Shown here piece after piece: positions 10,031 through 64,000 of a stretch of DNA of 64,000 nt. Both the position numbers and the translations under genes were made by a program. The notes under the pieces are model-generated. The model was not told where the DNA came from. It was given only the letters and a program-made list of their open reading frames with translations, and did not search any database. Source of the DNA: an uncultured Candidatus Babeliaceae bacterium. Its GTDB lineage: Bacteria; Babelota; Babeliae; Babelales; Babelaceae. Each line of letters starts with the position of its first letter. Position 1 is the first letter of the stretch. The DNA lies in assembly GCA_963704655.1 (NCBI GenBank), contig OY969927.1:320001-384000 (forward strand). The letters are read 5' to 3'.

Positions 10031-10068
10031 CCCTACTTCGCACCTTGTGGGTGCTTCGAAGGGCAGGC
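10031..10068. repeat. REP-like hairpin ending GGGCAGGC
   Basis: CCCTACTTCGCACC-TTGTG-GGTGCTTCGAAGGGCAGGC; related to 34941-34973 and 55912-55970. Confidence 0.5.
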
Positions 10069-11808: not shown

Positions 11809-13281
11809 ATGAAAGATTTAGCATTTGCTACTATACAAGAGCTTTCTCAAGCGCTTGAAGATAAAAAAATTTCCGTCTCAGAGCTTACAGACTATTTTAC
11901 CAAACGATTCGCTGAGCACGATGATAAAATCGGCAGCGCACTGGAAATATTTGATGCCCCTTCGATACATTCCCTTGCAGGGAACACTCAGGGTGCACGG
12001 GGGGAGAAGAGCAAGTTAACCGGTATCCCTGGCTTAATTAAAGACAATATCTGTCAAAAAGGGCGTGTCGCGTCATGTGCTTCAAAGATGTTAGAAAATT
12101 ACCAAGCGTCGTATGATGCAACGGTTGTTGAACGTCTAAAAGCTGTTGGTGCGCCATTGATTGGTCGTGCTAACATGGACGAATTCGCCATGGGAAGTTC
12201 AACAGAAACTTCAGCCTTTAAAAAGACCGCAAACCCATGGGATCTTTCTCGTGTTCCGGGTGGTTCAAGTGGTGGTTCTGCTGCCGCAGTTGCCGCTGGT
12301 TTAGTTCCCTGGTCGCTCGGTTCCGATACGGGCGGTTCAATTCGTCAGCCCGCATCGTTTTGTAATTTAGTAGGAAGTAAGCCAACGTATGGTTTAGTTT
12401 CACGTTATGGGTTGATCGCCTATGCGTCATCGCTTGATCAAATTGGTGCATTTACACGTACCGTGTATGACAATGCTATAGTGTTGTCTGAAATTGCCGG
12501 ACATGATAAACGTGATGGTACAAGCTTGCCCGTGCAGAAAAAAGATTATACCAAGTCCCTTGATAAAAAAATTCCTGCTGGGCTTAAGATCGGTATCGTT
12601 ACTAATGCGTTACAAGCAGAAGGTATTGATGCTGATGTACTTAACCTATTAGATGATGTTATTAAAGTGTATGAAAAATCTGGCGCAACTATCAAGCACC
12701 TTGCTGTTCCTGCTATGGATTATGCGGCCGCTGTGTATTTTATGGTAAGTCGTGCAGAAGCAGCTTCAAACTTGGCCCGCTTTGATGGTATTCGTTATGG
12801 GTACCGTGATATGCAGGCTGAGACATTGTCTGATGTGTATGTAAATGACCGCTCGCGTGGGTTTGGTGCAGAGGTTAAGCGTCGTATCCTGATTGGCAAC
12901 TATGCGTTGTCTAGTGGGCACGCTGATGCATATTATCAAAGCGCTAAAACGGTTCAGGCGGTAATGCGGCAAGAGTTCTTGGACGCTTTTAAAGAAGTTG
13001 ATCTTCTTTTTATGCCTACTACGCCATCTGGTGCGTTTACGTTTGGCGCGTTTGATAATGACCGTCTTAAAATGGATTTACAAGATTACTTTAACGCAAG
13101 TGCGAACTTGACCGGATTGCCGGCACTTTCTGTTCCTGCTGGTTTTACCCGTAACGGGTTACCGGTTGGTTTCCAGTTGATGGGGCCCGATTTATCTGAA
13201 GAATTACTATTTAAAGTTGCATATGCATATGAGCAGCAAACTTCATGGCACACCATGGTTCCTGAACAATTCAAAATATAA
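11809..13281 (+). CDS. gatA: Asp/Glu-tRNA amidotransferase subunit A
   Basis: Amidase signature GGSSGGS, GSDTGGSIRQPA; SNLARFDGIRYG; EVKRRILIG. Confidence 0.96.
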   Translation: MKDLAFATIQELSQALEDKKISVSELTDYFTKRFAEHDDKIGSALEIFDAPSIHSLAGNTQGARGEKSKLTGIPGLIKDNICQKGRVASCASKMLENYQASYDATVVERLKAVGAPLIGRANMDEFAMGSSTETSAFKKTANPWDLSRVPGGSSGGSAAAVAAGLVPWSLGSDTGGSIRQPASFCNLVGSKPTYGLVSRYGLIAYASSLDQIGAFTRTVYDNAIVLSEIAGHDKRDGTSLPVQKKDYTKSLDKKIPAGLKIGIVTNALQAEGIDADVLNLLDDVIKVYEKSGATIKHLAVPAMDYAAAVYFMVSRAEAASNLARFDGIRYGYRDMQAETLSDVYVNDRSRGFGAEVKRRILIGNYALSSGHADAYYQSAKTVQAVMRQEFLDAFKEVDLLFMPTTPSGAFTFGAFDNDRLKMDLQDYFNASANLTGLPALSVPAGFTRNGLPVGFQLMGPDLSEELLFKVAYAYEQQTSWHTMVPEQFKI

Positions 13282-35681: not shown

Positions 35682-36724
35682 AAAATTGTTTATTTAAAAA
35701 AATAATTTTCACTTTTTTAAGTATCGCCAGCTCTACTATCACTGCGCGCTCATGGACAACCACGTATCATTTTACCCCAAAGGTATTCCATGAATATCCA
35801 GGCATAATTGTTGTAGAAAAAAAGGCTCAAGAGCCATTTGCGCAACTTCTTGTTTCTTGGAACGCTGATTTGCCAAGCCATGGGTACTTGCGATTTTATG
35901 TAGAAGTTTTTGATGAAAAAAAACATGAGTGGTTAATATATAAAATGTATGAATGGGGTAACGGTATACAACGTTCATTTGCTGAAAAAAATAAACAGTC
36001 TGGTGGTGCGCAGTATACGCATGTGCGCTTTGAGGGCGCCCCTGGAAGTTTGTATCATACATTTAAAATAAAAGTTGAATCAGTTGATGGCGCAGAACTT
36101 TCTGCTTTACGTCACATAGCGGTTTGTGCTTGCGATTTGTCTCTTTTTGAAAATGAAACGGTAGGGTTATTGCATGCGACGTATTTTAAAAATAAGTATA
36201 TGTATCTTGCAGATGTGCCCTGTATTTCACAGCATGATGAACAATTTCCTGAAAGCACTGGTTGGTGCTCGCCCACTTCGTTAGCACAGGTTATTGAATA
36301 TTATACGCATAAGCCGATTGATCTTCCTGCTTTTGCGCGAGCGGTATTTGATGAAAAATTAGCTGCATACGGAAGTTGGCCCTTTAATACTGCACAAGCT
36401 GGGGTGTGTCTACCTGAGCATGTTTGTTATATTACACGTTTAAATTCTATAAAAAATTTGATTAAATTGTTATCTCATGGATATCCGGTAGTGGTGAGTA
36501 TCTGTTGCGCAAAGCCATTGCCAGGTGCGCCTAAGGCTTATGATAAAGGTCATTTAATTACCGTAGTTGGTTATGACCTAAGAAAAAATGAGATTATTTG
36601 TCATGATACCGCAGAAAAAGATGAAGCGCATATGATAAAAAATTATCCGTTAGAGCCTTTTATGCAGGCATGGGAACGGCGCCAAAGATTAGCATATGTT
36701 ATTGTCCCTGCTAAAATAGCTTGA
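35678..36724 (+). CDS. Secreted peptidase C39-like protein
   Basis: SQ...WCSPTS, YGSWPFN, GHLITVVG and HD motifs. Confidence 0.75.
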   Translation: MKNCLFKKIIFTFLSIASSTITARSWTTTYHFTPKVFHEYPGIIVVEKKAQEPFAQLLVSWNADLPSHGYLRFYVEVFDEKKHEWLIYKMYEWGNGIQRSFAEKNKQSGGAQYTHVRFEGAPGSLYHTFKIKVESVDGAELSALRHIAVCACDLSLFENETVGLLHATYFKNKYMYLADVPCISQHDEQFPESTGWCSPTSLAQVIEYYTHKPIDLPAFARAVFDEKLAAYGSWPFNTAQAGVCLPEHVCYITRLNSIKNLIKLLSHGYPVVVSICCAKPLPGAPKAYDKGHLITVVGYDLRKNEIICHDTAEKDEAHMIKNYPLEPFMQAWERRQRLAYVIVPAKIA

Positions 36725-37877
36725 AAATTTTAACGGGCGATTCTTTAAAATTATTTCCAAATTTATCTAAGCGCATAACTTGATGCTTTTTATAATAAGC
36801 ATGTAAAAGATCGTCCCACGTATGAATCTTTTTAAGAAGCTGGTCAAGTTTAATGGTGTGTAGTTTTCCTACAAAATTTTCATAGCCAACAGCTTGCGTA
36901 ACCAGAGTGTTTTTAATGTCGGTGATAACAACCACATGCCCTTGTAACCATATAAGATCACCTTCTTGAAGAGTATCGGCAGGAGTAAATTTCTTTCCAT
37001 ATTTTTCAAGCATCGCTGTTGTTTTGAAATTATAGGGAACTTGCGCTATTTGTGCAAAACGCAATACCAGTAATGAACAGTCATAGCCGCATAGCGGAAT
37101 GGTTTCACTTTCTTTACGGTGAAAACGACCAGCATCTTCAATAAAATCATCGCTATAGGCGCGTGTAAAGCTTCCACCGCCCCAGACATAAGGAATCGTA
37201 TTATATGGCGTTTGTTGATCTATTTCATCTACAAATTCCGTTAAAAGTTTTATAAAATCTTGGCGGGATTCTGCTGTTGACAGTTTTTTACTTTTAAAAG
37301 CATGTGAACGTGGTATAAAAAAATATTTTAACGATTTTATGTGAGTATCAAGGTACATTACGTGAAATGCGTCAGGTTCGTGCTGGTCCTGAGCGCAGAC
37401 AAATTGTGTACCAACTGAATACCTTGTGCCGTTAGGGCCAGTAAAAGGGCGCTTTAACGTAATGACATTTTTTTTATGCGCATACTGTGGAATTGTTGGT
37501 AATAGTTCGTGATGGTTTGGGATGGCGTCTATGAAGATAATATTTTTTCGTTCTGCCCAATAACGACATAGTGGCTTGCCATGAGTATCATAGCCGTATA
37601 CTGCCCAAGGTATTGATAACGCAATCATGTTTCCAGAAATTTCTAGCACCTCAAAGCATTCGTTAAAGAGTCCTTGATGTATCCGTGGGCAAACTATAGA
37701 ATCTCGTGTTGCTGCTGGAATAGGCGTATCCGGTAGGTTTGCCGAACCGTAAAGGTCTATGACAGGATATTTTATGAGAGCATACTTTTTAAAGTCATGC
37801 AGGTTATAGTTTGCATCTGCCGTTTTTATAAAAAAGATTATGGCACTCAGTGCCATGAAAAAGATTTTTTGTCCCAT
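36711..37877 (-). CDS. NlpC/P60 (C40) cell-wall peptidase
   Basis: PYVWGG, GYDCS and GDLI...GHV motifs; likely start MGQKIFF at 37877. Confidence 0.8.
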   Translation of the reverse strand: MGQKIFFMALSAIIFFIKTADANYNLHDFKKYALIKYPVIDLYGSANLPDTPIPAATRDSIVCPRIHQGLFNECFEVLEISGNMIALSIPWAVYGYDTHGKPLCRYWAERKNIIFIDAIPNHHELLPTIPQYAHKKNVITLKRPFTGPNGTRYSVGTQFVCAQDQHEPDAFHVMYLDTHIKSLKYFFIPRSHAFKSKKLSTAESRQDFIKLLTEFVDEIDQQTPYNTIPYVWGGGSFTRAYSDDFIEDAGRFHRKESETIPLCGYDCSLLVLRFAQIAQVPYNFKTTAMLEKYGKKFTPADTLQEGDLIWLQGHVVVITDIKNTLVTQAVGYENFVGKLHTIKLDQLLKKIHTWDDLLHAYYKKHQVMRLDKFGNNFKESPVKIFKLF

Positions 37878-38009
37878 ATGTCTTTCTCCCCTACTATTTA
37901 AGATAGGTGGTTTAATGGGCTTAAAGCAATCTTTTAAAGGGGCTTGTGTTATGCACCATTTTTTTGGTATAGTTCCAGAAAATGAGCATGTCACCTTGTT
38001 AACGTAAAA

Positions 38010-38036
38010 GATCCCGGATCGAGTCCGGGATGACAC
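38010..38036. repeat. Single GTCAT-tagged palindrome, same family as 34841-34989
   Basis: GATCCCGGATCGAGTCCGGGATGACAC. Confidence 0.7.
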
Positions 38037-38052
38037 CATCATAGGAGAATTT

Positions 38053-39842: not shown

Positions 39843-40685
39843 ATGAAGTATACATATAGATCTGTTTATATCGTTATAGCTATGACGGTTGCATCAGCTC
39901 AGGCAGAAAATGAGTCTAAAAGTCTTGGTAGTTTTGTTGCAAAAAATGCCTTATTAGGGGCTATTGCCGGTGGTTTAGAGGTAACGGTTAACCAGCCTTT
40001 AGTAACTATCAAAAATAGTTTGCAGCAGCGGCTGCCGATAGCTTTTGACCGCACTTTGTATAAAGGGTATATGGTTAATGCTGGTAGCATGGGGCCGATT
40101 ACAGCGGCTCAGGTAACGGTATATGCGTTGATAAAAAAACAATTCGAGTCGCACGGTAGAGCTCTTTCTGATGCGCAGAATTTGGGGGCTGGTTTTGCAG
40201 CAGGTGCTGTCTCTGGTCTGGTAAGTGGTCCGGCTGAGCTTATTATGTTAAAACAGAAAAATAGTGGTAAAACATTGCAACAGGCTTTTACTGATGTTAT
40301 GAGACAAAAGGGTGTTGCTGGGTTATGGCGCGGCTTTGTGCCAGCGGCAATGCGTGACGGTGGTTTTACTATGGGGTATCTTGCTTTAGGCGATGTCTTT
40401 AAGAACCCTATCAAAAAGATAGTTCATGATGAGCGTCTTGCTTCATTGACGGCCGGCATTTGTGCAGGTTTAGTAGTTGCTCCTCCAACGCACCCTTTTG
40501 ATACAATAAAGACTATTATGCAGGCAGAAGATATAACGCTTAAGCAGGCTATGTATAAAAAATACCGGTCACATGGTGTTCAGGGTTTTTTTGACGGGTT
40601 GTCACCACGTGCGTTCAGGATTCTCTTGGCAATACCTTTAATGAGTATGGTTAAGTATGAACTTTCGCTGCACTTGGATCTTTAG
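39843..40685 (+). CDS. Mitochondrial carrier (SLC25)-family protein
   Basis: Three repeats with Px[DE]xx[KR]-like motifs (QPLVTIK, GPAELIM, HPFDTIKTIMQ) and LYKG / GLWRG / GFFDG motifs. Confidence 0.85.
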   Translation: MKYTYRSVYIVIAMTVASAQAENESKSLGSFVAKNALLGAIAGGLEVTVNQPLVTIKNSLQQRLPIAFDRTLYKGYMVNAGSMGPITAAQVTVYALIKKQFESHGRALSDAQNLGAGFAAGAVSGLVSGPAELIMLKQKNSGKTLQQAFTDVMRQKGVAGLWRGFVPAAMRDGGFTMGYLALGDVFKNPIKKIVHDERLASLTAGICAGLVVAPPTHPFDTIKTIMQAEDITLKQAMYKKYRSHGVQGFFDGLSPRAFRILLAIPLMSMVKYELSLHLDL

Positions 40686-51484: not shown

Positions 51485-51928
51485 ATGAAAGTATTTTTAT
51501 TAAAAGATGTTGAACAAGTAGGCATGGCTGGCCAAATGATTAAAGTTTCTGATGGTTACGCAACTAATTTTCTTCTTCCAAGAAAGCTAGCCGTTGAGAT
51601 TACGCCAGAAAATGAAGCTCGATTTTTAAGCAAAATTCGTGTGGTTGAAAAGCACAAAGAGGTCGTTGCAACAAAGACTTCTATGCTTGCTGAAAAAATT
51701 AAGCACATCGAATTGAAAATTAAACGTAAGCTTGCTGAAGGCGATAAATTATATGGCGCTATTTCTGCTGGCGATATTGTAGAGCTTTTGGCTGCTGAAG
51801 GCGTTTCGGTTTCTAAGAACCAAATTGAGTTTGGTAAATCTATCAAAACAAAAGGTACTCACGAATTCACCGTTAAACTTTCAAGCACGTTAAAACCAAC
51901 TTGCAAAATTAAAGTATTGGCAGAATAA
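51485..51928 (+). CDS. rplI: 50S ribosomal protein L9
   Basis: MKVFLLKDV..G..G....V.DGYA.NFLLP. Confidence 0.96.
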   Translation: MKVFLLKDVEQVGMAGQMIKVSDGYATNFLLPRKLAVEITPENEARFLSKIRVVEKHKEVVATKTSMLAEKIKHIELKIKRKLAEGDKLYGAISAGDIVELLAAEGVSVSKNQIEFGKSIKTKGTHEFTVKLSSTLKPTCKIKVLAE

Positions 51929-53336: not shown

Positions 53337-53819
53337 ATGGTAGTATTGGGGATAGATCCGGGAACGCGTGTTTCTGGTTTTGTGATTTTTAAAAAAGAAA
53401 ATCGGCAAGTTTCTGTATTAGATTACGGTACATTAAGTATGCCGGCTAGCCAAGAACTTACTGACCGTGTTGCGGAATTCTTTTCTTTTTTTAAAGATAA
53501 AATAGAGAAGTTTTCTGTGTCTGATATCGCTATTGAAACGCCATTTCTTGGTAAAAACGCCTCTAATTATCTCAAGCTTGGATATTTACGCGGTGCTGTC
53601 TATATTCTTACTTCTCAGTATAAGCTTGTTTTACATGAATATTCCCCCCGTGAGGTTAAGTTGTCTGTTACGGGGTTTGGCGGGGCGGACAAAGAACAGG
53701 TTGCCCGTATGGTTCTTCGCCTGTTTCCGGGGTTTGTTATGCCGGCTAAATATGATCTTACGGATGCGTTTGGCGTCGGGATTTGCTGTGTTTGGACCGC
53801 GCGGATGGTACGGGTCTGA
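53337..53819 (+). CDS. ruvC: Holliday junction resolvase
   Basis: LGIDPG, IE, VTGFG.ADK and DA motifs. Confidence 0.93.
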   Translation: MVVLGIDPGTRVSGFVIFKKENRQVSVLDYGTLSMPASQELTDRVAEFFSFFKDKIEKFSVSDIAIETPFLGKNASNYLKLGYLRGAVYILTSQYKLVLHEYSPREVKLSVTGFGGADKEQVARMVLRLFPGFVMPAKYDLTDAFGVGICCVWTARMVRV

Positions 53820-53851: not shown

Positions 53852-53895
53852 CCGTGCACCCTGAGTGTTCACCGTAAGGTGAATGTATCGAAGGG
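53852..53895 (+). repeat. Tandem-GA hairpin repeat unit
   Basis: CCGTGCA-CCCTGAGTG-TTCACC-GTAA-GGTGAA-TGTATCGAAGGG. Confidence 0.75.
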
Positions 53896-54042
53896 TTATA
53901 AGTTTATTGATTTTTTGCACTATTATTAAAAGAACTATTGATTTTATAGTCTTTTATCTTTTATAATTAAAGTAGTTATTGACAGTTGTTGTCATATTAA
54001 CCATTGTAAGGTGGACGAATGTCCATTTAAAAAGGAGATGTC

Positions 54043-54183
54043 ATGGTAAAGAAAACCTTGTCACATACAAAGAAAACTGCTTCTACGGCTAAACGTCGTA
54101 AAGTAGTTAAATCTACTAAATCAAAAACTACGGCTAAACGTAGTGCTAAGAAGTCGAAAAAAGGCTTTTTTAGCTGGTTTTAA
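54043..54183 (+). CDS. 46-aa lysine-rich, histone-H1-like small protein (below the ORF-track cutoff)
   Basis: AAGGAG RBS; MVKKTLSHTKKTASTAKRRKVVKSTKSKTTAKRSAKKSKKGFFSWF; own terminator downstream. Confidence 0.8.
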   Translation: MVKKTLSHTKKTASTAKRRKVVKSTKSKTTAKRSAKKSKKGFFSWF

Positions 54184-54189
54184 TCTTTT

Positions 54190-54219
54190 GCCCAGTTCTT
54201 AATTGAGCTGGGCTTTTTT
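54190..54219 (+). terminator. Intrinsic terminator
   Basis: GCCCAGTTC-TTAATT-GAGCTGGGC-TTTTTT. Confidence 0.88.
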
Positions 54220-54256
54220 ATCTCGCTCCGCTTCTGATAATTCGCTTTTATCCGAA

Positions 54257-54333
54257 TGGTTCGATACACCGTGCATCCTGAGTGTTTACCGCTAGGTGAA
54301 TGTATCGAAGGGCACGGCACTCACCATGCACGG
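54257..54333. repeat. Two nested tandem-GA hairpin units (plus-strand copy inside the loop of a minus-strand copy)
   Basis: TGGTTCGATACA[CCGTGCATCCTGAGTG...TGTATCGAAGGGCACGG]CACTCACCATGCACGG. Confidence 0.7.
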
Positions 54334-54538
54334 AAATTTATTGCAATTTTTTTAGCGCTACCGCTCCTTCATGCATGGACGTCCCTGCGCTCTGCGTTGT
54401 TAATCACAACGCTTTCTGCTTGGGCTCGCCATGATTCAGGGCGTACGCTCCTTACGCTACTATTGATTTCTGTCTCAAGTTTTAATTATAATTAATAATA
54501 GAAATATAATTTTATGATTATTAAGCTATTGGGATTTT

Positions 54539-55351
54539 ATGAAAAAACATTTTTTTATCGCATTGCTCTTTTTTATTTCAGGCATATCAGCTCACCTCAA
54601 TTATATTCTTCGTCCAATGTCGCCAGAAGTAAGGGAAAAGCAACTGATTAATGATCAAAAATATAGCACCGCTTATGAAATAATTTCTCATGGTGATAAG
54701 ACTGCCAATACCAAATTACTAAACCAGGCCCAAGTACAATTTGAAGAGATTATTGATGAAGCAAAAAAAGATCCTGAAGCGGTATCTGAAAGAACGCTTT
54801 TAGCTACTCAATATCGCCTTGGATTGCTTTATTACAATATAGGTGTTGTTTCACCACAAGAAGATATCTTTTTGCAAAGTTTGAATAAAGCTAAGGAGTT
54901 ACTTTTGCCCGTAACGCAAGCGGCTCCGGAGGCGGTCTTGCCATTTATATATGTGCATAGCTGTTATCTTATGGCTAATATATATTGGTTTGGTAATGAT
55001 AAAGATGATGAATACAAAGCAGAACGATTTTTTAGAAAAGTTATCGCATATGATATTCAACATCCAGAATTTAAGAATGACGATATGATTCGTCCTATTG
55101 TGGTTTCTACGCGCATAGCACTTGCAAGACTGTTAAGTTACCATGATAATTTTTTTAAAGAGGCTCAATCAAGGTATCAAGCTCTTTATTATGAGCTTGA
55201 AAAAAATCCAATTACTGACCCAAATAAAGCCGCTTATATTAAAGATGGACTTAATGCTTTAAAAGCGACATTGCTTAAAAAAATGCATGCACGTATGCCA
55301 CAGCAAGAAGAAAGTCGTGAAAGATATGCAAGACAGGATTTACGGATATAA
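54539..55351 (+). CDS. Hypothetical secreted TPR-like helical protein
   Basis: Signal peptide; YRLGLLYY and YLMANIY helical repeats. Confidence 0.65.
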   Translation: MKKHFFIALLFFISGISAHLNYILRPMSPEVREKQLINDQKYSTAYEIISHGDKTANTKLLNQAQVQFEEIIDEAKKDPEAVSERTLLATQYRLGLLYYNIGVVSPQEDIFLQSLNKAKELLLPVTQAAPEAVLPFIYVHSCYLMANIYWFGNDKDDEYKAERFFRKVIAYDIQHPEFKNDDMIRPIVVSTRIALARLLSYHDNFFKEAQSRYQALYYELEKNPITDPNKAAYIKDGLNALKATLLKKMHARMPQQEESRERYARQDLRI

Positions 55352-55415
55352 GTTTTATTGCTATTTGGGATAAAATAATGTCAGTTTGATGAAAAAAATG
55401 TATTTCTTCAAAAGA

Positions 55416-55807
55416 CCCGCTCACCCAGAGCGAAGCGTAGCGCAGTCGAAGGGTTGGGGATATAAGTAACTTATTATTTTTTAAAACCTGCAAAACCGTG
55501 CTGTATTAAAATTTCTTTTTTTCTTCGGCCTCAGCCTTTAATTTTTGGTTTTGCCAACCAAGCTTCATCTCGAGTTTGAAAGAGCTCCGAATAAACCAAC
55601 TTAACTGGGCGCCACGTAGATGTATAATTTTCGAATGCTCCCGATTGATGCTCAGCAAATCTTTTTTGAAGATCATCTGTATGACCTATATAATATGATT
55701 TATCATTGCAGCGCAATATATATAAATAAAAACCATTCATAATCATATTTTTCTCATTTATATCCCCAACCCTTCGACTGCGCTACGCTTCGCTCTGGGT
55801 GAGCGGG
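55416..55807. mobile_element. GIY-YIG gene cassette bounded by a perfect 50-bp inverted repeat (55416-55465 / 55758-55807)
   Basis: CCCGCTCACCCAGAGCGAAGCGTAGCGCAGTCGAAGGGTTGGGGATATAA and its exact reverse complement. Confidence 0.75.
55474..55746 (-). pseudogene. Small GIY-YIG nuclease (UPF0213-like) with premature TGA
   Basis: YLYILRC...YYIGHTDDL..R..EH; the frame continues IKG*GRRKKEILI to TAA at 55474, with TGA at the position of the usual Trp in IKGW. Confidence 0.8.
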
Positions 55808-55817
55808 GGCGGACAGG

Positions 55818-55972
55818 CGACTCGACGGAGTTTATACTGAGCCCTTCGATTGGTGCGTAAACGCACTATTTTACTCAGGATGAACTGCGTCGAAGTACTC
55901 AGTGTGACCCAGCCGTCGCCTCGGGTTTACTCCTGAGTAACGATAGCGTATTGAAGGGCTATGGCGGGCATG
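55818..55972. repeat. Cluster of nested tandem-GA hairpin and GGCGGGCA-type repeats
   Basis: TACTGAG[minus-strand TCCTGAG...CGAAGGG]GTCGAAGTA; TCCTGAG...TGAAGGG inside CCGTCGCC...GGCTATGGCGGGCA. Confidence 0.65.
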
Positions 55973-56016
55973 GGCGGGGGTAAATTACGATAATTATAGG
56001 TTTAAGAAAAACTCTT

Positions 56017-56170
56017 TTAAAACAAACCATCGCATTAGTTTGCACCAATGCGATGGAAAAAAGGAGAGTAGTAATGAAGCCTAGTTATATGCCCCTTTTG
56101 AAGGGGATGGCGGGGAAGACCCGCGCGTCATATGAAAACTTATAATTTCTCTAATAAAGCTTATTTATAT
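56017..56170 (-). ncRNA. Candidate structured sRNA of about 150 nt
   Basis: Promoter at 56177-56204; internal stems GCGGG/CCCGC and CCCCT/AGGGG; terminator CCATCGCATT/AATGCGATGG followed by T-rich sequence. Confidence 0.5.
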
Positions 56171-56245: not shown

Positions 56246-57427
56246 TCAGGCTGAAATTTCCCGCATGGAAGAAAGGTTACTTTTTGGGATAAGTGGCACC
56301 TGATCGGGGGAATCGATAGTTATAAGATTAAATCCGCTTTGTTCCGCGCAAAGGGAGTATAAAAAGGCGTTAGGCTGGGGGGTGGTGATAATAAGCTGCA
56401 CCTGGAGCCCAAATAAGAGTTTTAAGAGCTTTTTGACCCGTATTTCATCAAAATCGGTAAGGAAATCGTCTATAAGAAAAAGAATAGAGCTATTACTGCT
56501 TGAAGTTAGATCTCCCAATAAAAGACGTGCTTGGGCTATTTTAAGGAGCATAACTGCCAATTTTTGTTGACCGCGAGAAGCAAATGAGCGAGAATTGCGT
56601 TCGTGTACTAAGAATTCGATATCATCAAGATGTGGGCCATAAAGGTTGCGCTGTGCGCGTAATTCATCGTTAAGAAGGTGTTCGCGCTCTTCTTGGGTGG
56701 CTATACTGCGCTTTTCATGATAATTAAAGGTTAAAAAGTTTTCTGCCAGGGGTGAGCCAGAAGAGGCTGTGTCGTATAATTTAATTATTTCAGTAATTTT
56801 TGTCTTTAATTGAGTTAAGTAATGTATCCTATATCGTATAATCTCATGTGAGGTAGCGATTAATTGGTCTGTCCATAGAATGTATTGTTCTTCATGGAAG
56901 CGATGCTCTTGGATGATCTTGGTTCTTTGATCAACGATCTTGCGTAATGATTTAAGTAAGTTATGGTAATGGGGCTCTTGAATAGAAAGGGCGTTATCTA
57001 TCATTGATCTTCGTGCTTCTGGGTAACCCTTAATGCATTGAAGGTCATCTTCTATAAAGGTGACCACTTTATAGCTTTTTATCAGCTCGTTATATGAGCT
57101 GATAGTTGCACCATCTAGTTTTATGACTCGCTTTTTGCCCGACACGCCGATAAAAAGATCGTCTGTCGTTGTTGTTATCTGGATAGTAAAACCGGAAACT
57201 CCGGAACCGGTAACTTCTGAGTTGTCATTGCATAATTCTATTGGTAAATGCGTTCTAAATGAACGCAAGTAACAGCCATAGTGAAGAGCTTCCAGTATTG
57301 ACGTCTTACCAGAACCGTTGCTCCCTTGAATAATGGTTACTCCCGGAAAATCGGTACCGGGAGTAATATTAAATGTAGCTTGCTTAAAGCAGCGAAAATT
57401 TCTGAGCGTGATACGTGTTACCGACAT
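56246..57427 (-). CDS. recF: DNA replication and repair protein RecF
   Basis: NFRCF, GSNGSGKTSILEA, GPHLDD, SRGQQK and LIDD motifs. Confidence 0.93.
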   Translation of the reverse strand: MSVTRITLRNFRCFKQATFNITPGTDFPGVTIIQGSNGSGKTSILEALHYGCYLRSFRTHLPIELCNDNSEVTGSGVSGFTIQITTTTDDLFIGVSGKKRVIKLDGATISSYNELIKSYKVVTFIEDDLQCIKGYPEARRSMIDNALSIQEPHYHNLLKSLRKIVDQRTKIIQEHRFHEEQYILWTDQLIATSHEIIRYRIHYLTQLKTKITEIIKLYDTASSGSPLAENFLTFNYHEKRSIATQEEREHLLNDELRAQRNLYGPHLDDIEFLVHERNSRSFASRGQQKLAVMLLKIAQARLLLGDLTSSSNSSILFLIDDFLTDFDEIRVKKLLKLLFGLQVQLIITTPQPNAFLYSLCAEQSGFNLITIDSPDQVPLIPKSNLSSMREISA

Positions 57428-57436
57428 ACTTTGTAA

Positions 57437-58561
57437 CTATCCTTGTGCCTGTGCTGCAGAAACTGGCATAACAAGATAAAGTCGGTTTATTTTTGGTGAC
57501 GCTGCTTCAAAAATAATAGGCTTTGTTGCAGAATGAAGATAGAAAGAGATATTTTCTTCAAAGCTTTGTACGCCACTTAAAAGATACGGTGCATAAAAAC
57601 GTACATCTATTTCATCATGGGTATAATCAAATAGCGGAACCCGTTCATTAAGCTTACCCACTTCTTTATTATTCATAACAACATGCACAGCATTATTCGA
57701 AAATTTAAACTGTGTTGCAATAAATTGGCCCGAAAGCAGACACGTAGAACGTTTAAGCGTTTTAATAAAATGTGCACGGTCAAGCTTAGCGGCATGGAAA
57801 CCTTCTTTTTGTAAAATAGGTTGATACTTTGGAAAAGTATCGACTAATAATTTTGAAAAGAAGTTAAAATGTTGCCCAGAAAAAACAAGTTGTGCTGAGC
57901 AGGTACCTACAAAGAGTGACGTGTCTTGGTATGAATCAAGAATCTTTTTTAATTCAAAAACAGCGCGGCGGGGTAATAACCATGACTGTGCGGTTTCGAG
58001 TGTAAATTCGGTAGAGCTTACTTGCGCTAAGCTGTGACCATCTGTTGCGGTCATTTTAAACATACCAGGTGAAACTTCTATAAAAAGACCATTTAAAGCC
58101 GGGTTTGAATTATTTTGTGGCACCAAGAAACTCACGCCCTCTAACATGCTTTTGAATGTCGCGCTTTCAATTTGCATGAGATTTTCTATGCGTTCCGGCA
58201 ATGGCGGAAATTCTTGTGCGTCTTTGATGTTTAATGATAAGTGTACATCGTCACAGGTTATATGTAGTTGGTTTTCATGTAACTCTAATGTGATAGTATT
58301 GCTCAGTTCTTTTACGATATCAAAGATGCGTTTTCCCGGAACAAGAAACTGTTCTGCTTGACGAAAATCGCTTTCAACAACACTGCAGCTTGCTTGTAAG
58401 CTGATCTCTAAATCGGTACTTTTTAATATTAACTCTTTTGCACCAACTTGGAACATAATGCAGCTTGTGGCATCAAGCGTTGTCCTGCGCGTACAAATAG
58501 GTTGCATAGCGGTTAAAATTGAGAGTAACTCTTTCTGTTCTATAATAAATTTTTTTTCCAT
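57437..58561 (-). CDS. dnaN: DNA polymerase III beta clamp
   Basis: TDLEI, ATDGH.L, FP.Y and LVMP motifs; lies upstream of recF. Confidence 0.95.
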   Translation of the reverse strand: MEKKFIIEQKELLSILTAMQPICTRRTTLDATSCIMFQVGAKELILKSTDLEISLQASCSVVESDFRQAEQFLVPGKRIFDIVKELSNTITLELHENQLHITCDDVHLSLNIKDAQEFPPLPERIENLMQIESATFKSMLEGVSFLVPQNNSNPALNGLFIEVSPGMFKMTATDGHSLAQVSSTEFTLETAQSWLLPRRAVFELKKILDSYQDTSLFVGTCSAQLVFSGQHFNFFSKLLVDTFPKYQPILQKEGFHAAKLDRAHFIKTLKRSTCLLSGQFIATQFKFSNNAVHVVMNNKEVGKLNERVPLFDYTHDEIDVRFYAPYLLSGVQSFEENISFYLHSATKPIIFEAASPKINRLYLVMPVSAAQAQG

Positions 58562-58719
58562 AACTACCTATAGTATTAAAAAAAGAATGGTAACTAGACT
58601 ATCTCATAGTATACCATAGCATAAGCTTTTTTCCTGTTAATTTTTTTTAAGTATTGATTTGTGTGCGCATACTATGTTCTAATAAAAAAAACATTCAAAA
58701 ACAATGGGAACACTCTTGT

Positions 58720-58789
58720 TTATCAAATTTACCGTGATACCGGCTTATCACAACTTGTTGCAACTGTGCCTGCATCTGGAATATTTTAG
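58720..58789 (+). pseudogene. Fragment of the FN3-like C-terminal domain of the downstream beta-propeller genes
   Basis: TATCAAATTTACCGTGAT...CAACTGTGCCTGCATCTGG (YQIYRD...QLVATVPASGIF*) matches 60003-60063. Confidence 0.7.
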
Positions 58790-58862
58790 ATATTGATTCT
58801 TATGATCATACTATTTTATTGTTTTATTGATTAAGAAAAAAACAAATACGAAAGTGTAGAGC

Positions 58863-60185
58863 ATGTACAAAAAAACTTTTATCTCATTATTCTTATTATT
58901 TATTGCAATATGTCATGCACAAATACCGAACGAAATTCTTTCAACACCCGCACTTACGGGAATCTTTGATGGCCCTGGAGGGGGAGTAGCAATAACACCT
59001 AATGGTGAATATGCCTATGTTACTAACGGGGCCGGAACTACTGTAAGCGTTATACAAATTTCTAATAATACTCTATATGCAACAATATCTGGTTTTGATT
59101 TACCGCAAGGAATAGCAATAACACCGGATGGACAATATGCCTATGTCACTAACGAGGCCGGAACTACTGTAAGCGTTATTGATCTTAGGCCAGCAAGTCC
59201 CACCTATAATCAGATAGTATCAACAATAACTGTTTCTGGTCAACCATTTGTAATAACAATAACACCGAATGGTGATTATGCCTATGTTTCTAATGTCGCA
59301 TACGTTATAAATGTTATTAAAACTTCTGATAATACCGTGCTAGTAACACCAGGATTAACAAACACTTTTAGAGAACCCAATGGAATAGCAATAACCCCAG
59401 ATAATCTTTTTGCCTATGCTGCTGATTCTCAAGAAAATACGGTTAGTGTTATTGATATTGATCCTTCAAGTGCCAACTATAATACGATAAAAGAAGTTAT
59501 AACTGGTTTTTCTTATCCCGATATAATAGCAATAACACCAGATGGACAATATGCCTATGTTGCTAATGCTGGTAATAGTGGGGGGTGTGTAAGTGTTATT
59601 GATCTGAGGCCAGCAAGCTCCACCTATAATCAGATATTATCAACACCAGGATTAACAACTGGTTTTAATGAACCCAGAGGGCTAGCAATAACACCAGATG
59701 GGCAATATGTCTATGTTACTAATACCAATGGAAATAGTGTAAGTGTTATACAAATTTCTAGTAATACCATACTTTCAACACCTGGTTTAACGAGTGGTTT
59801 TGATGAGCCCTTTGCAGTAGCAGTGACACCTGATGGACAATATGTCTATGTTGCTGATTTTGGTGCTAATAGTGTGGTTGTTCTCTACAGCCCCGCACCC
59901 TTGAATGCTAGTGGTTGCAAAAGAAAGGATAACTTTTTAACGCAAACAGATAACTATAATCATCTTACCTGGTCAGCACCAGAAGCGGGTTCACCCGCTG
60001 CATATCAAATTTACCGCGATGCAGCATTAACGCAATTAGTTGCAACTGTGCCTGCCTCTGGCATTTTGCAGTATGATGATCATAATCGAAATCCAAATGT
60101 AAATTACACCTATTATATTGTTGCAGTTGATGCTTCAGGAAATCTTTCATCGCCTGCTGTTACTACCGTTACACAATCTTGTTAG
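58863..60185 (+). CDS. YncE/YVTN beta-propeller protein with C-terminal FN3-like domain
   Basis: Seven AITPDGxYAYV repeats; signal peptide. Confidence 0.88.
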   Translation: MYKKTFISLFLLFIAICHAQIPNEILSTPALTGIFDGPGGGVAITPNGEYAYVTNGAGTTVSVIQISNNTLYATISGFDLPQGIAITPDGQYAYVTNEAGTTVSVIDLRPASPTYNQIVSTITVSGQPFVITITPNGDYAYVSNVAYVINVIKTSDNTVLVTPGLTNTFREPNGIAITPDNLFAYAADSQENTVSVIDIDPSSANYNTIKEVITGFSYPDIIAITPDGQYAYVANAGNSGGCVSVIDLRPASSTYNQILSTPGLTTGFNEPRGLAITPDGQYVYVTNTNGNSVSVIQISSNTILSTPGLTSGFDEPFAVAVTPDGQYVYVADFGANSVVVLYSPAPLNASGCKRKDNFLTQTDNYNHLTWSAPEAGSPAAYQIYRDAALTQLVATVPASGILQYDDHNRNPNVNYTYYIVAVDASGNLSSPAVTTVTQSC

Positions 60186-60254
60186 AGGTATTGATTTGTA
60201 TGCGCACAATATGTTTTAGTAAGAAAAAAATTCAAACTTTTGAAAGCGGGTATC

Positions 60255-61532
60255 ATGTTTAAAAAATCTTTTATATTTTTGGTATCGCTTTTTAGCATAG
60301 CGTGCCAGGCACAAGAGTTAAGTTATATCTTACCAACACCTGGCTTAGAAAGCGGTTTTAATAGTCCTATAAATGTGGCAATAACACCAGACGGTCAATA
60401 TGCCTATGTCACAGATAGTGGCAGTAATAGTGTGATTGTTATAGATGTTGCAAGTAATACCATTTTATCAACCCCTTATTTAACGGGTGTCTTTTCTGAC
60501 CCTTTTGGAATCGCAATTACCACCGATGGCAAATATGCGTACGTTACTAATGTTGGCAATAATACTGTAAGTGTTATAGATATAGCAAATAAAACCATAG
60601 AAACGTTAGCAACCGGTTTTTATGAACCGTTTGCAATAGCAATAAAACCAGATAATAGCTATGCCTATGTTACCAATCTTAGCAATGATAGTGTAAGTGT
60701 TATACAGATCTCGAATAATGCCGTAACAACACCAGCTGGTTTAAGCACGGGCTTTAATAGTCCAAGGGCAATAGCAATAACACCAAATAATACCTATGCT
60801 TATGTTACCAATTCAGACGGAAATTCGGTAAGCGCTATAACGCTTTCTAGTAATACTATTTATGCGACCATTACAGGATTTTATTATCCCGGTGCAATAG
60901 CAATTACACAAGATAGTAACTATGCTTATGTTGCCAATTCCGACAATAACACTGTCAGTGTTATACAAATTTCTGACAACACCATACTGCCAATATCTGG
61001 ATTAGATACTGAGTATGTTCCTCAAGGAATAACAATAAGTGGTAACTATGTGTATGTTACTTCTGGTAATGCTCCCTATGGTGCTGTCAATGTTATACTA
61101 ATCTCTGATAATAAGCTCTTATCAGTCCCAGGTTTATTAAGAGGTTTTGATGAGCCTCGAGGAATAGCAATAACCCCTAATGGGCAATATGGGTATGTGG
61201 TTAATTATGATAGTCATAGTGTAACTGTCATCTACAATCCTACGGTCTTGAATGTGAGTGGATGCAAAAGAAAAAATATCTTCTTAACGCAAATTGATAA
61301 CTATAATCATCTTACCTGGGCTGCACCGGCAGCGGGTGAACCCGCTGCATATCAGATTTACCGCGATGCAGCGTTAACGCAATTAGTTGCAACTGTGCCT
61401 GCCTCTGGCATTTTGCAGTATGATGACCATAATAGAAACCCGAATATAAATTACACCTATTATATTGTTGCAGTTGATGGTTCAGGAAATGTTTCAGCAC
61501 CTGCTGTTACTACCGTTACACAATCTTGTTAA
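60255..61532 (+). CDS. YncE/YVTN beta-propeller protein with C-terminal FN3-like domain
   Basis: Paralogue of the preceding gene. Confidence 0.88.
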   Translation: MFKKSFIFLVSLFSIACQAQELSYILPTPGLESGFNSPINVAITPDGQYAYVTDSGSNSVIVIDVASNTILSTPYLTGVFSDPFGIAITTDGKYAYVTNVGNNTVSVIDIANKTIETLATGFYEPFAIAIKPDNSYAYVTNLSNDSVSVIQISNNAVTTPAGLSTGFNSPRAIAITPNNTYAYVTNSDGNSVSAITLSSNTIYATITGFYYPGAIAITQDSNYAYVANSDNNTVSVIQISDNTILPISGLDTEYVPQGITISGNYVYVTSGNAPYGAVNVILISDNKLLSVPGLLRGFDEPRGIAITPNGQYGYVVNYDSHSVTVIYNPTVLNVSGCKRKNIFLTQIDNYNHLTWAAPAAGEPAAYQIYRDAALTQLVATVPASGILQYDDHNRNPNINYTYYIVAVDGSGNVSAPAVTTVTQSC

Positions 61533-61548
61533 CATGAAAGTGAGTATA

Positions 61549-62820
61549 ATGTTTAAAAAATCTTTTATCTTAATGTTCTTGCTTGTAAGTGCAGTATGCC
61601 AGGCACAAGAACCTAACACGATACTTAATACACCTTATTTAGATGGCGGGTTTAATGAACCGCAAGGTGTTGCTGTAACGCCAAATGGTCAATATGCCTA
61701 TGTTTGTAACTACGGCGAAAGTACTGTGAGCGTTATAGATGTCTCTACCAACTCAATAGCAACTGTGATATCAGGTTTTGATTACGGACCGCAAGGAGTA
61801 GCAATAACACCAGATGGCAAATACGCTTATGTTACTAATAATACTGGAAACAGCGTAAGCGTTATAAATTTATCAACCAATTCAATTTTGACAACAATAC
61901 CGGGTTTTAATCAACCAGTAGGAGTAGCAATAACACCAGATGGCAAATACGCTTATGTTTGTGCTGGCGGTGATGTAAAGGTTATAGACGTATCTACCAA
62001 CACCGTATCAGCAACGATAACTGGTCTTGATGATACCGCTGGAATAGCAGTTACACCAGATGGGCAATACGCCTATGTTACTATCCCGTTTGAGGGCTAT
62101 GTCGTCGTTATAAAAACTAAAGACAATTCAGTATTGACAACAATAACCGGCTTTTCTGAGCCGCAGGTACTAGCGATCACGCCGGACAACAAATACGTTT
62201 ATGTTGGAAACACTTATCAGTTAAAGGTAATAACTATTGCGGATAATGAGATATCAACAACGATATCTGGCTTTAATTTTATCTCTGGAATTTCAATAAC
62301 TCCTAATGGGCAATATGCGTATGTAACTAATTTCAATGGAAATAGTGTGAGTGTTATAGACTTAATCCCGACAGATCCAGCCTATAATACTATAATTTCA
62401 ACACCTGGCTTAGAAAGTGGGTTTACTTTTCCTGCTGGAATAGCGATCACACCAAATGGTAGCTATGCATATGTTACGAATCTATTTGGAAATAGTGTAA
62501 ATGTCATTTTTATTAAAACGCCTCTTACTGCGCCGGTTAATTTTAGCGGATGTAAAAGAAAGAATAGCTTTTTAACATCAGTTGATAATTATAACCACTT
62601 AACCTGGTTTGCATCGAGCGCCGGAACACCCGTATCGTATCAAATTTACCGCGATGCAGCGTTAACGCAATTAGTTGCAACTGTGCCTGTCTCTGGCATA
62701 TTGCAGTATGATGACCATAATAGAAATCCGAATATAAATTACACCTATTATATTGTTGCTGTTGATGGTTCAGGGGATGTCTCTGAGCCAGTAATTACTA
62801 CCGTTACACAATCTTGCTAA
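61549..62820 (+). CDS. YncE/YVTN beta-propeller protein with C-terminal FN3-like domain
   Basis: Paralogue of the two preceding genes. Confidence 0.88.
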   Translation: MFKKSFILMFLLVSAVCQAQEPNTILNTPYLDGGFNEPQGVAVTPNGQYAYVCNYGESTVSVIDVSTNSIATVISGFDYGPQGVAITPDGKYAYVTNNTGNSVSVINLSTNSILTTIPGFNQPVGVAITPDGKYAYVCAGGDVKVIDVSTNTVSATITGLDDTAGIAVTPDGQYAYVTIPFEGYVVVIKTKDNSVLTTITGFSEPQVLAITPDNKYVYVGNTYQLKVITIADNEISTTISGFNFISGISITPNGQYAYVTNFNGNSVSVIDLIPTDPAYNTIISTPGLESGFTFPAGIAITPNGSYAYVTNLFGNSVNVIFIKTPLTAPVNFSGCKRKNSFLTSVDNYNHLTWFASSAGTPVSYQIYRDAALTQLVATVPVSGILQYDDHNRNPNINYTYYIVAVDGSGDVSEPVITTVTQSC

Positions 62821-62893
62821 AGGTATTGATTTGTATGCGCACAATATTTTATGGTTTAGAAAGAAAAAACATTCAAACATGAAAGTGAGTATA

Positions 62894-63271
62894 ATGTTAA
62901 AAAAATCTTTCCTATTGTTGAATTTGTTTGCTGCAGCAGGTCAAATGCTACATGCTACACCTGAAAGTCCCATTAATTTTAAAGGGTGCAAAAATAAAGA
63001 TATCTATTTGACGCAAATCGATAATTATAACTATCTCACGTGGGCAGCGCCAGATTTAGGCCCTCAGCCGGTATCATATGAGATTTTTCGCGCGAACTTT
63101 ACCAATGATACCCTTGTACTTGTTGCGACCGTTTCAGGCTCTGGAATATTAGAGTACTATGATCATGACAGAGACCCAAGTATAAATGATGAGTATGTAA
63201 TTTACGCATTAGATGCATCTGGCTTTCACTCTGTGCCTACAAGAACTACCGTTACTGAAAATTGTAATTAA
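62894..63271 (+). CDS. Stand-alone FN3-like domain protein with signal peptide
   Basis: GCKNKDIYLTQIDNYNYLTW...YEIFR...TVTENCN. Confidence 0.8.
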   Translation: MLKKSFLLLNLFAAAGQMLHATPESPINFKGCKNKDIYLTQIDNYNYLTWAAPDLGPQPVSYEIFRANFTNDTLVLVATVSGSGILEYYDHDRDPSINDEYVIYALDASGFHSVPTRTTVTENCN

Positions 63272-63296
63272 ATCTTCACATAAAAAAAGGAAAATT

Positions 63297-63902
63297 ATGA
63301 AAAATACAAAAAAATTATATCTCGGCTTATTGTTATTAAGCGCATGCTTGAATATACACAGTAAAAGAGACGTTATGTTAGAGTTCAAAGGCGCCTTTTT
63401 TCAACCAATAAACTGTACCTTTAAAAATATCTACGGCGGCGGGGCGTTTTTTGGGCCTGAACTGACCTTTAATATTTTCAGAAATATTCATGGCTTTGTA
63501 AGTTATGACTATTTTACTAAAAATGGTAACACTATTGGCTTAAGTACACCAACATCTGTTAATTTTATGGCGCTCGGCGTTGGGGTGAAATTCATGGGCT
63601 GTGTCAGCGACCATGCTCGTCTGTACGCTGGCTTAGGTTTTGAACCAGTATATTTAACGACAAAAAACTGCTCACCATACGTTACACCAAAAACGCAAAA
63701 ATGGGGCTTTGGTGGCATAGCTAAATTCGGTGCTTATATCGATTTACCACACAGCTTTGTACTCGATCTTTTTGCCGATTATTCATTTGTTAAAGTTTCG
63801 CCAAGCTGCTGCACCGGTTCACCTCTTGGTTATATTCAACCAACCAAAGCTGATTTAAGCGGCTTTATCTTCGGCGCTGGCCTTGGCTATCGTTTTAATT
63901 AA
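63297..63902 (+). CDS. Outer-membrane beta-barrel protein (OmpW/OmpA-like size)
   Basis: Signal peptide; amphipathic strands; C-terminal beta-signal GAGLGYRFN. Confidence 0.8.
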   Translation: MKNTKKLYLGLLLLSACLNIHSKRDVMLEFKGAFFQPINCTFKNIYGGGAFFGPELTFNIFRNIHGFVSYDYFTKNGNTIGLSTPTSVNFMALGVGVKFMGCVSDHARLYAGLGFEPVYLTTKNCSPYVTPKTQKWGFGGIAKFGAYIDLPHSFVLDLFADYSFVKVSPSCCTGSPLGYIQPTKADLSGFIFGAGLGYRFN

Positions 63903-63916
63903 GTCTTAATATATTT

Positions 63917-63942
63917 ATATCAGGGGCGAACGCCCCTGATAT
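63917..63942 (+). terminator. Hairpin, probable terminator
   Basis: ATATCAGGGGCG-AA-CGCCCCTGATAT followed by CTTTT. Confidence 0.7.
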
Positions 63943-63960
63943 CTTTTAAAGGTAAATGCA

Positions 63961-64000
63961 ATGATAAGAAAAATTATAATGTTCTTTATACTGATTTTTA
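63961..64000 (+). CDS. Possible start of a signal-peptide-bearing gene running off the right edge
   Basis: MIRKIIMFFILIF after AAAGG. Confidence 0.4.
   Translation, partial: MIRKIIMFFILIF

Follow-up and report, generated by a model that had tools for sequence, protein, structure and literature searches.

The DNA analyzed here is a 64,000-nucleotide (nt) stretch of contig OY969927.1 from an uncultured Candidatus Babeliaceae bacterium (hereafter, the window), and our subject is a family of short, oriented hairpin repeats that clusters at 53852-55972 together with a gene for a small stand-alone GIY-YIG nuclease. The cluster is bounded by ruvC and by recF-dnaN (Table 1), and the 53.8-56.0 kb interval holds two small genes and is otherwise largely spacer. 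Reading of the sequence combined with motif searches identified eight repeat units at 53852-55972 and two further units, G and H, elsewhere in the window. From 5' to 3', a unit consists of an oriented tag, a 4-nt outer stem, GA, G, a variable centre that in most cases is self-pairing, C (T in one unit), GA, and the complementary stem, and unit length is 34-50 nt. The tags distinguish type 1 (CCGTGCA ... GAGTG ... TGTATCGA; units A, B, and B'), type 2 (CCCGCTCA ... GAGCG ... GCAGTCGA; units C and D), and type 3 (TCGACGSAGTTYA ... GAGTA or GAGC; units E, Ei, and F). All eight cluster units carry GA on both sides, and the adjacent pair is G-C in seven of them and G-T in unit F, while the outer stems vary among CCCT/AGGG, TCCT/AGGG (in three units), TGGT/ACCA, TACT/AGTA, and CCCA/AGGG, the last in C and D and containing one A.A mismatch. 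A preliminary description of this stretch had counted about nine units in 2.1 kb, with outer stems covarying around an invariant GA/GA; the tandem-GA units and the covariation are borne out, whereas the count is eight. That description did not mention the nuclease gene, the in-frame copies within genes, or units G and H. A second hairpin family placed at 55912-55970 did not hold up, as the fold of 55905-55978 had a z-score of -0.74 and was matched by 47 of 200 shuffles.

Units C and D together make up a perfect 50-nt inverted repeat whose arms are 292 nt apart, and the GIY-YIG gene lies between them. Unit C is located 5 nt past the end of the full-length GIY-YIG frame, and its reverse complement resembles a terminator; unit D lies on the strand of the gene, 11 nt upstream of the gene start. 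In the window, type 2 occurs solely as this perfect repeat. The encoded protein is a single domain of 90 amino acids (aa), as are its closest homologues, which are 87% identical and uninterrupted. The gene in the window is interrupted by TGA at 55531-55533, and the called open reading frame (ORF) is 71 aa, compared to 90 aa on read-through. Nine of nine aligned homologues have Trp at the TGA position, where the window protein has Trp by read-through only. A host code that reads TGA as Trp was ruled out, since TGA ends 6 of the 26 Pfam-supported ORFs. Because TGA is an ordinary stop in this genome and the Trp is invariant, the gene is broken, or at best truncated to 71 aa, and the repeat family may be inactive in this genome.

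The window organism is a member of the Dependentiae (Babeliales), a phylum of obligate parasites of protists, and further copies were found in other genomes. A scan of genome contigs with a 20-base type-1 pattern gave 17 loci, 14 of which had unpaired stem bases and were taken as chance matches. The other three (L005, L007, and L016; Table 1) are true copies, in which the conserved parts are identical and three new inner hairpins are perfectly paired. Their sites are unrelated to those in the window. The wider scan proposed in the preliminary description yielded type-1 copies in three other genomes at non-orthologous sites. Direct repeats of the kind that target-site duplication leaves around miniature transposable elements with inverted repeats (MITEs) were not seen by eye in the flanks of A, G, L005, and L007.

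Some copies are translated. Unit G encodes PSIHSLAGNTQGARG within GatA, and TQGAR or PSIH was present in none of the 119 other GatA homologues listed, the nearest of which is 88% identical (Babeliales/Dependentiae relatives). The gatA linker at unit G is hypervariable in length and sequence among relatives; it is 5-7 aa longer in the window protein, and an 11-aa stretch of the nearest homologue is replaced rather than extended. This hypervariability rules out gatA as a clean empty-site test, and only the absence of the unit in relatives is safe. The phosphoglycerate mutase of L007 has ≈21 extra residues at the unit compared to structure 5vpu; this gene (850-2378, + strand) is split into overlapping ORFs at 850-1305 and 1290-2378, by a frameshift or an assembly error. 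At L005, the L7/L12-like ORF (1072-1539, - strand) is extended at its N terminus by the translated unit (MHPECFASAKCIEG...), which implies that such repeats can mislead gene callers on start codons. All three coding copies (gatA, L007, and L016) are antisense to the host gene; this bias is not significant, since the antisense frames of the unit are more often open. Searches with very short translated frames say little: a 46-aa frame over unit B gave 14 candidates among longer proteins, none of which scored, and a 33-aa frame over unit A gave a single match among 1.84 billion representatives, to a repetitive, unrelated protein (P0200).

The bare pattern stem4-GAG..YGA-stem4' is not enriched in the window, where it occurs 9 times versus 11.1 ± 3.3 in shuffles. 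With G-T pairs allowed, the numbers are 27 versus 57 ± 8; yet 7 of these matches fall in 53.8-56.2 kb, where ≈2.1 are expected. Shared sequence stands out more: CCGTGCANNNNGAGTG occurs 4 times versus 0.00 expected, and TCGAAGGG occurs 7 times versus 0.56 expected. Because the bare pattern is not enriched, the case for a family rests on shared sequence and on a covariance model, which was built from six type-1 copies and scanned against the whole window with filters off. This model recovered all hand-picked units but E and nothing else credible, with best type-1 matches of 68-75 bits (E-values of 1e-15 to 1e-16). Unit B' scored 13.7 bits with filters off and 31.3 bits (E-value 8e-6) in another model run. 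CCGTGCA was invariant in six of six type-1 copies.

Covariation was tested on seven type-1 copies from four genomes aligned to the model. In this alignment, 96% of cells pair and 8 of 11 pairs changed on both sides; none of 500 shuffles reached any of five measures, and sliding the partner by 1-3 columns left only 38-71% pairing. B', E, and the outer unit of L016 were recognized by their conserved flanks and not by their stems, so that complementarity of their free stem bases (TGGT/ACCA, TACT/AGTA, and TCCC/GGGA, respectively) constitutes an independent test, which was passed three times. In a table of 20 units from seven sources, GA/GA is present in 20 units, the adjacent pair is G-C in 18, and the tag ends in CA immediately 5' of the stem in 17. 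The 80 outer-stem cells of this table comprise 75 Watson-Crick pairs, 3 G-T pairs, and 2 mismatches, over eight different stem pairs. Units in this table from three proteobacterial loci described below (L018, L019, and L023) were chosen with a pairing filter, so that independent evidence comes only from the tags and cores they share. Fold z-scores of single copies were modest (-0.96 to -3.8), as expected for hairpins of 35-80 nt. We conclude that these hairpin repeats are a real family defined by structure, with covarying stems around a fixed core. The structure-defined element resembling repetitive extragenic palindromic (REP) sequences of the preliminary description is thus supported, in that the stems covary while GA/GA, the 5' tag, and TCGA are fixed, and the covariation, which it had suggested checking with such a model, passes both the shuffled and the slid controls. 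The invariance of GA/GA further suggests sheared G.A pairing.

Table 1. Repeat units, nuclease gene, and other features (positions are those of the window; copies in other genomes are listed by locus)
Feature	Position	Strand	Description
Unit A	53852-53895	+	Type 1; tag CCGTGCA, stem CCCT/AGGG, GAGTG, 6-bp hairpin, TGTATCGA; 33 nt past ruvC stop; 75.4 bits, E-value 1.2e-16
Unit B	54269-54317	+	Type 1; stem TCCT/AGGG with T.G pair; 91% identical to A; 68.1 bits
Unit B'	54257-54333	-	Type 1; stem TGGT/ACCA; centre is inverted unit B
Unit C	55416-55465	+	Type 2; tag CCCGCTCA, stem CCCA/AGGG, plus 12 nt; left arm of inverted repeat
Unit D	55758-55807	-	Identical to C; right arm of inverted repeat; 11 bits
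Unit E	55821-55897	+	Type 3; tag TCGACGGAGTTTA, stem TACT/AGTA; centre is inverted unit Ei
Unit Ei	55842-55892	-	Type 3; tag TCGACGCAGTTCA, stem TCCT/AGGG, 5-bp inner hairpin; 16.4 bits, E-value 0.031
Unit F	55925-55958	+	Type 3; stem TCCT/AGGG; TTGA replaces TCGA; 6.8 bits, weak
Unit G	11958-12000	-	Type 1; in frame within gatA, antisense; 70.4 bits
Unit H	10031-10063	+	Degenerate; stem CCCT/AGGG, inner hairpin, and TCGA kept, 5' GA absent; between rsmG and MatE gene; 6.4 bits, weak
Candidate collapsed relic	56091-56105	+	CCCC-TT-TTGA-AGGGG; 3' flank like that of F; read by eye
GIY-YIG gene	55474-55746	-	Stand-alone; 90 codons; PF01541 over residues 6-72, E-value 1.5e-15
Copy L005			Unclassified metagenome-assembled genome; between ORFs resembling ribosomal proteins L10 and L7/L12 (from reading the ORF list)
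Copy L007			Candidatus Babeliaceae; unit in frame in cofactor-independent phosphoglycerate mutase
Copy L016			Candidate division TM6; nested unit in frame in 435-aa ORF
ruvC	53337-53819	+	Bounds the repeat cluster
recF-dnaN	56246-58561	-	Bounds the repeat cluster
Candidate gene	54043-54183	+	46 codons; very basic Lys/Arg/Thr/Ser-rich peptide with internal 17-nt direct repeat; promoter-like site upstream at 53938-53967; clean terminator-like hairpin at 54190-54213; no family match
ORF, 270 aa	54539-55351	+	Between two repeat clusters; no Pfam or NCBIfam match; hydrophobic N terminus, signal-peptide-like by reading
Giant ORF, >3081 aa	2-9244	-	Runs off the window; highly repetitive, with 465-nt and 135-nt tandem repeats
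Giant ORF, 1869 aa	23428-29034	+	Terminal Peptidase_S74 (endosialidase chaperone) domain
Giant ORF, 1822 aa	29034-34499	+	No Pfam match
Mito_carr gene	39843-40682	+	Bacterial gene matching eukaryotic mitochondrial carrier family, E-value 4.7e-32
Beta-propeller genes	58863-62817	+	Three adjacent paralogues (Lactonase/NHL-type repeats); C-terminal ends near-identical

Three nestings were found: B in B', Ei in E, and L016, where a type-1 unit lies within a unit bearing the type-2 tag. The inner unit is inverted in all three and lies exactly in place of the central hairpin of the outer unit, between GAG and TCGA. The 5' halves of E and Ei are identical at 16 of 20 bases, and part of the Ei tag doubles as the TCGA of E, so that these two units are interleaved rather than cleanly nested. 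Such precise and always inverted placement raises the alternative that hairpin loops are the specific insertion target of the element, the central loops of its own copies included, and that Russian dolls arise in this way, as the preliminary description had proposed. In B', the sequences on either side of the inner unit are CCGTG and CACGG, possibly the two arms of a 5-bp hairpin that was split; however, CCGTG is also the 5' tag of the family and need not derive from a target, which leaves B' ambiguous, and no split-loop remnant is evident in the three cases examined. E/Ei and L016 lack split-hairpin arms, and the entire centre is replaced. Moreover, the cases number only three and are biased toward centres, since insertion elsewhere would destroy the recognizability of the outer unit; nesting may be the sole kind of insertion that leaves it recognizable. 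Finally, no pre-existing hairpin is apparent where copies stand alone, whether within a protein linker or in ordinary intergenic DNA. Nesting in opposite orientation is upheld, but the inner units replace centres instead of sitting in intact loops, and we consider loop targeting doubtful.

Further evidence for a link between the repeat and the nuclease came from homologues outside this genome. ST[SG]S[GA] occurs in the C-terminal tails of 28 of 77 nuclease homologues, as the exact end in 21, and LRQAQ occurs in two more. These tails lie at variable distances from the GIY-YIG domain, which makes them look like a translated DNA element rather than a protein motif. We examined nine plasmid or chromid GIY-YIG loci with 1.5-kb flanks, and in three of them (L018, L019, and L023; 46.5-52.3% identity) tagged GA units occur on both sides of the gene. 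In Sphingomonas parapaucimobilis (L018; protein 47% identical), five units of the form CGTTCA-GGCT or CCCT-GAGCGAAGTCGA-AGCC or AGGG-CAC flank the gene, with tags that point outward, as in the window. One of these overlaps the 3' end of the gene in reverse, so that the tail of the gene is the reverse complement of a GA unit. The Sphingomonas unit occurs in at least 157 places on nine replicons of one strain. Four copies at this locus have outer stem GGCT/AGCC, and the copy that overlaps the nuclease gene has CCCT/AGGG; at 1370-1454 and 2578-2666, inverted doublets, with tags inward and tags outward, resemble REPINs. In Methylobacterium bullatum (L019; 47%) and M. aquaticum (L023; 52%), units of the form CCTCA-TCCT-GAG-[hairpin]-TCGA-AGGA lie on both sides, with tags that point inward. 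The type-2 centre of the window (55428-55449) and the centre of an L019 unit (1820-1848) share AGCGTAGCG, even though their hosts are from different phyla; the type-2 centre also holds GCGAAGC. Azospirillum lipoferum 4B (L021) encodes a GIY-YIG protein 32% identical to that of the window, and no tagged GA unit was found in the 1.5-kb flanks of its gene.

The arrangement resembles a system described by Chenal et al. (2025; PMC11893778). SsnA of Neisseria is a 94-aa single-domain GIY-YIG protein that binds the NTS hairpin only as single-stranded DNA (ssDNA), on one strand, does not bind RNA, and cleaves a few nt upstream of the hairpin. Ssn proteins were described as the first site-specific nucleases that cut ssDNA only, each nuclease-hairpin pair having its own specificity, and a conserved upstream flank orients the NTS. 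The general repeat, SRM, lies near 71% of SsnA homologues and on both sides in 42%, and the authors remark on the insertion sequence (IS)-like layout NTS-ssnA-NTS and on the parallel to REP/RAYT. The system was reported to be enriched in symbionts. Likewise, the window combines a single-domain GIY-YIG protein of ≈90 aa, a gene bracketed by hairpin repeats of 20-50 nt, a non-palindromic 5' flank that orients the repeat, copies both dispersed and clustered, and inverted doublets. By contrast, the window tags are CGTGCA, CGCTCA, and AGTTCA, compared to CGTCA of the SRM; an invariant loop of tandem G.A breaks up the hairpin; the stems differ by compensatory changes, whereas SsnA required the stem sequence; the centre is a module that may consist of an entire inverted unit; and copies lie in frame in genes, whereas 2% of NTS copies are intragenic. 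Azospirillum lipoferum 4B is among the genomes that define the SRM, and four canonical SRM copies flank its GIY-YIG gene, as doublets on both sides. In a quick tree, this SRM-flanked protein falls within an 80-row group that contains the window protein, apart from YazA and YhbQ (SH-aLRT 98), but on a long and uncertain branch; three Firmicute and E. coli loci (L027-L029) were used in the tree only and were outside the repeat scan.

These observations suggest, with a probability that we put at roughly 0.6, that the units are the cognate hairpin sites of the small stand-alone GIY-YIG nuclease, and that they form a REP-like system of the same build as Ssn with its SRM or NTS. By analogy with SsnA, the nuclease would read the unit solely as ssDNA, on the GA strand. 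The protein would read the 5' tag (CCGTGCA, CCGCTCA, or AGTTCA), the loop of tandem G.A together with the adjoining G-C pair, and TCGA, whereas the outer stem and the centre would need only to pair, and nicking would take place close to the tag. Repair of the nick by copying from another unit would then generate new copies, and this conjectured step would account for copies that replace sequence, the centres of other units included. The module is not a new kind of system; it belongs to the nuclease-plus-hairpin kind described in 2025, to which it adds a distinct hairpin design, an unreported phylum, nesting, and in-frame copies.

Several points weigh against this interpretation. The hairpin type is known here from sequence alone, the nuclease gene of the window is itself broken, and copying by repair is pure conjecture. 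In Neisseria, altering the palindrome while keeping a hairpin abolished SsnA activity (PMC11893778), whereas the stems vary freely here. The SRM search string (HGTCWYN(0-2)YYVSBRHN(0-5)WNVSBRGN(0-2)RNCYNB) matched none of the 10 window units and gave no match in L018-L020, although it found the four copies around the Azospirillum gene as a positive control. The nearest solved structures to the GIY-YIG protein are UPF0213 proteins (1zg2 and 1ywl), and the Azospirillum branch in the tree has a length of 5 and was flagged as unsure by the program. Neither kind of repeat was present at five of the nine loci (Sphingomonas paeninsulae, two Legionella plasmids, Cupriavidus, and Variovorax); the S. 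paeninsulae GIY-YIG gene appears to be broken. By reading of the ORF lists, no GIY-YIG-like ORF lies within 1.5 kb of L005, L007, or L016.

The last result would also be expected if the repeat were an ordinary selfish palindrome, akin to REPs or to the RPEs of Rickettsia, that is moved by a RAYT-type transposase or by host repair and has the GIY-YIG gene as a mere neighbour. Eight of the ten window units lie within 2.1 kb, so that some neighbourhood is expected by chance; the gene is broken in the window; and the nearest relative of the GIY-YIG protein is about as distant (87% identity) as that of GatA (88%), as for a vertically inherited gene. However, related GIY-YIG genes in Sphingomonas and in two species of Methylobacterium are bracketed by this core hairpin as well, which also marks 30 of the 77 homologues at their 3' ends; type 2 is found in the window only as the perfect repeat that surrounds the gene; and no transposase family, including tyrosine transposases (RAYTs), was matched among the 52 window ORFs scanned against Pfam. 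Movement by another enzyme thus seems quite unlikely.

The preliminary description had left open whether the unit acts as ssDNA or RNA. Given that units flank stand-alone GIY-YIG genes here and in alphaproteobacteria and that Ssn binds the NTS only as ssDNA, ssDNA is most likely the form that would be read. A structured RNA motif, namely a kink-turn-like, protein-binding hairpin with tandem G.A pairs in transcripts, might be suggested by the wobble pairs, all four of which (three in outer stems and one, in F, a closing pair) have G-T rather than A-C on the GA strand; as a strand hint this is weak, because a single stem, TCCT/AGGG, accounts for three of them. Similarly, three of four stand-alone intergenic copies (A, H, and L005) lie on the strand of neighbouring genes, and F is opposite to recF and the GIY-YIG gene. 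Against an RNA element, each of the three coding copies runs antisense to the mRNA, the two units of every nesting are on opposite strands, and the related SsnA does not bind RNA (PMC11893778). Rfam gave no match at gathering score in the 64 kb and nine weak matches at E-values up to 10, none over a unit. We consider an RNA motif very improbable.

Comparison with published repeat families, which the preliminary description had recommended, revealed no full identity. The tags of the 20 units (CGTGCA, CGCTCA, AGTTCA, AGTTTA, CGTTCA, and CCTCA) place neither GTAG nor CGTC at the palindrome end. The CGTC-tagged REPs catalogued by Di Nocera et al. (2013; PMC3733652) are likewise short tagged palindromes, mostly alphaproteobacterial, that form dimers and have some intragenic copies and no transposase found. 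The window tag differs from theirs by a one-base insertion (CGT-N-CA) and the stem by its GA/GA interruption; no GIY-YIG link is noted, and "GIY" occurs 0 times in the available text of that paper. In REP/REPIN-RAYT systems (Bertels and Rainey, 2011; PMC3116915), the enzyme gene is also flanked by its own hairpin repeats in inverted doublets, clusters lie beside the enzyme gene, and repeats insert into or beside repeats. Unlike these, the window has no GTAG tag, and its candidate enzyme is GIY-YIG rather than an HUH/Y1 transposase. Rickettsia, an obligate intracellular bacterium, likewise has palindromes in frame within housekeeping genes that are unrelated to one another (RPEs; PMC10969869), but they are ≈150 bp long, compared to 34-50 nt here, and belong to another phylum and, by description, another sequence family. 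The ends of IS200/IS605 elements are hairpins read in ssDNA on one strand (summarized in PMC11893778), but no TnpA/TnpB was seen in the window, and there are no defined left and right ends around cargo. Mitochondrial hairpin elements (PMC2800124) are similarly small repeats that colonize spacers and multiply in their genome through an unknown mechanism; they differ in being organellar and unrelated in sequence, with no associated nuclease gene described. A Coxiella QMITE was considered and ruled out, as QMITEs are 150-400 bp long with direct repeats and a GTAG REP, and the window does not come from Coxiella.

The SRM string had a single match in the window, TGTCATCCCGGACTCGATCCGGGATCTTT at 38007-38035 (- strand), compared to 0.2 in shuffles. 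This canonical NTS-like hairpin lies at the 5' end of a 443-aa ORF (36714-38042), beside a ferritin-like gene, and implies that at least one classical-type hairpin is present in the genome too. Babela massiliensis, the only member of the Dependentiae found by name in the tables of PMC11893778, is listed with 0 SRM and no ssnA. None of the 14 supplementary files of that paper contains TCGAAGG, GAGCGAAG, CTGAGC, TCGAAGC, or CCTTCGA, a scope that excludes its figures. Literature searches returned no paper joining GIY-YIG with "repetitive extragenic palindromic" and nothing relevant under "miniature inverted-repeat," for Dependentiae joined with "palindromic," or for the peptide strings; the Babela paper was without palindrome, hairpin, or GIY-YIG terms.

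A further possibility is that the repeats serve the host as a DNA signal, with the nuclease-hairpin pair controlling recombination or DNA uptake near particular genes. NTS/SsnA modulates transformation in Neisseria (PMC11893778), the core of the repeat is conserved across phyla, and the cluster lies among the replication and repair genes dnaB, ruvC, recF, and dnaN. Conversely, the nuclease gene is inactivated here, copies lie within the coding sequence of an essential gene and within one another, and copy positions differ between genomes. We consider such a signal unlikely, although it is compatible with the units being cognate sites of the nuclease, since it concerns the beneficiary only. Between ≈9 kb and 57 kb the GC skew is positive, and beyond that (≈57000-64000) it is close to zero; dnaN-recF lie near this skew plateau without an adjacent dnaA. 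The repeat cluster may be close to a replication landmark, but the window contains no convincing dif-like site, only one weak dif-like string at 51918. Among the other genes of the window (Table 1), the Mito_carr gene fits a parasite of eukaryotic cells.

More broadly, and only tentatively, tandem-GA hairpins may represent a second cross-phylum recognition class for small GIY-YIG ssDNA nucleases, in which specificity would reside in the G.A loop and the tag instead of the stem sequence, stems and centre would be free to vary, could accommodate an entire inverted copy, and could be borne in frame by essential genes, and the nicks made by the nuclease would drive copying into new sites. If so, a second hairpin design paired with a related nuclease clade would widen the toolbox of ssDNA nucleases and would provide a natural experiment on how such proteins read their sites, in which nature varied the stems and centre and kept the G.A loop. 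In addition, the recurrent C-terminal tail of annotated GIY-YIG proteins may be a translated repeat. The copies reported here provide a second example, besides the Rickettsia RPEs, of palindromes in frame within housekeeping genes, and the nuclease-hairpin system would reach the Dependentiae.

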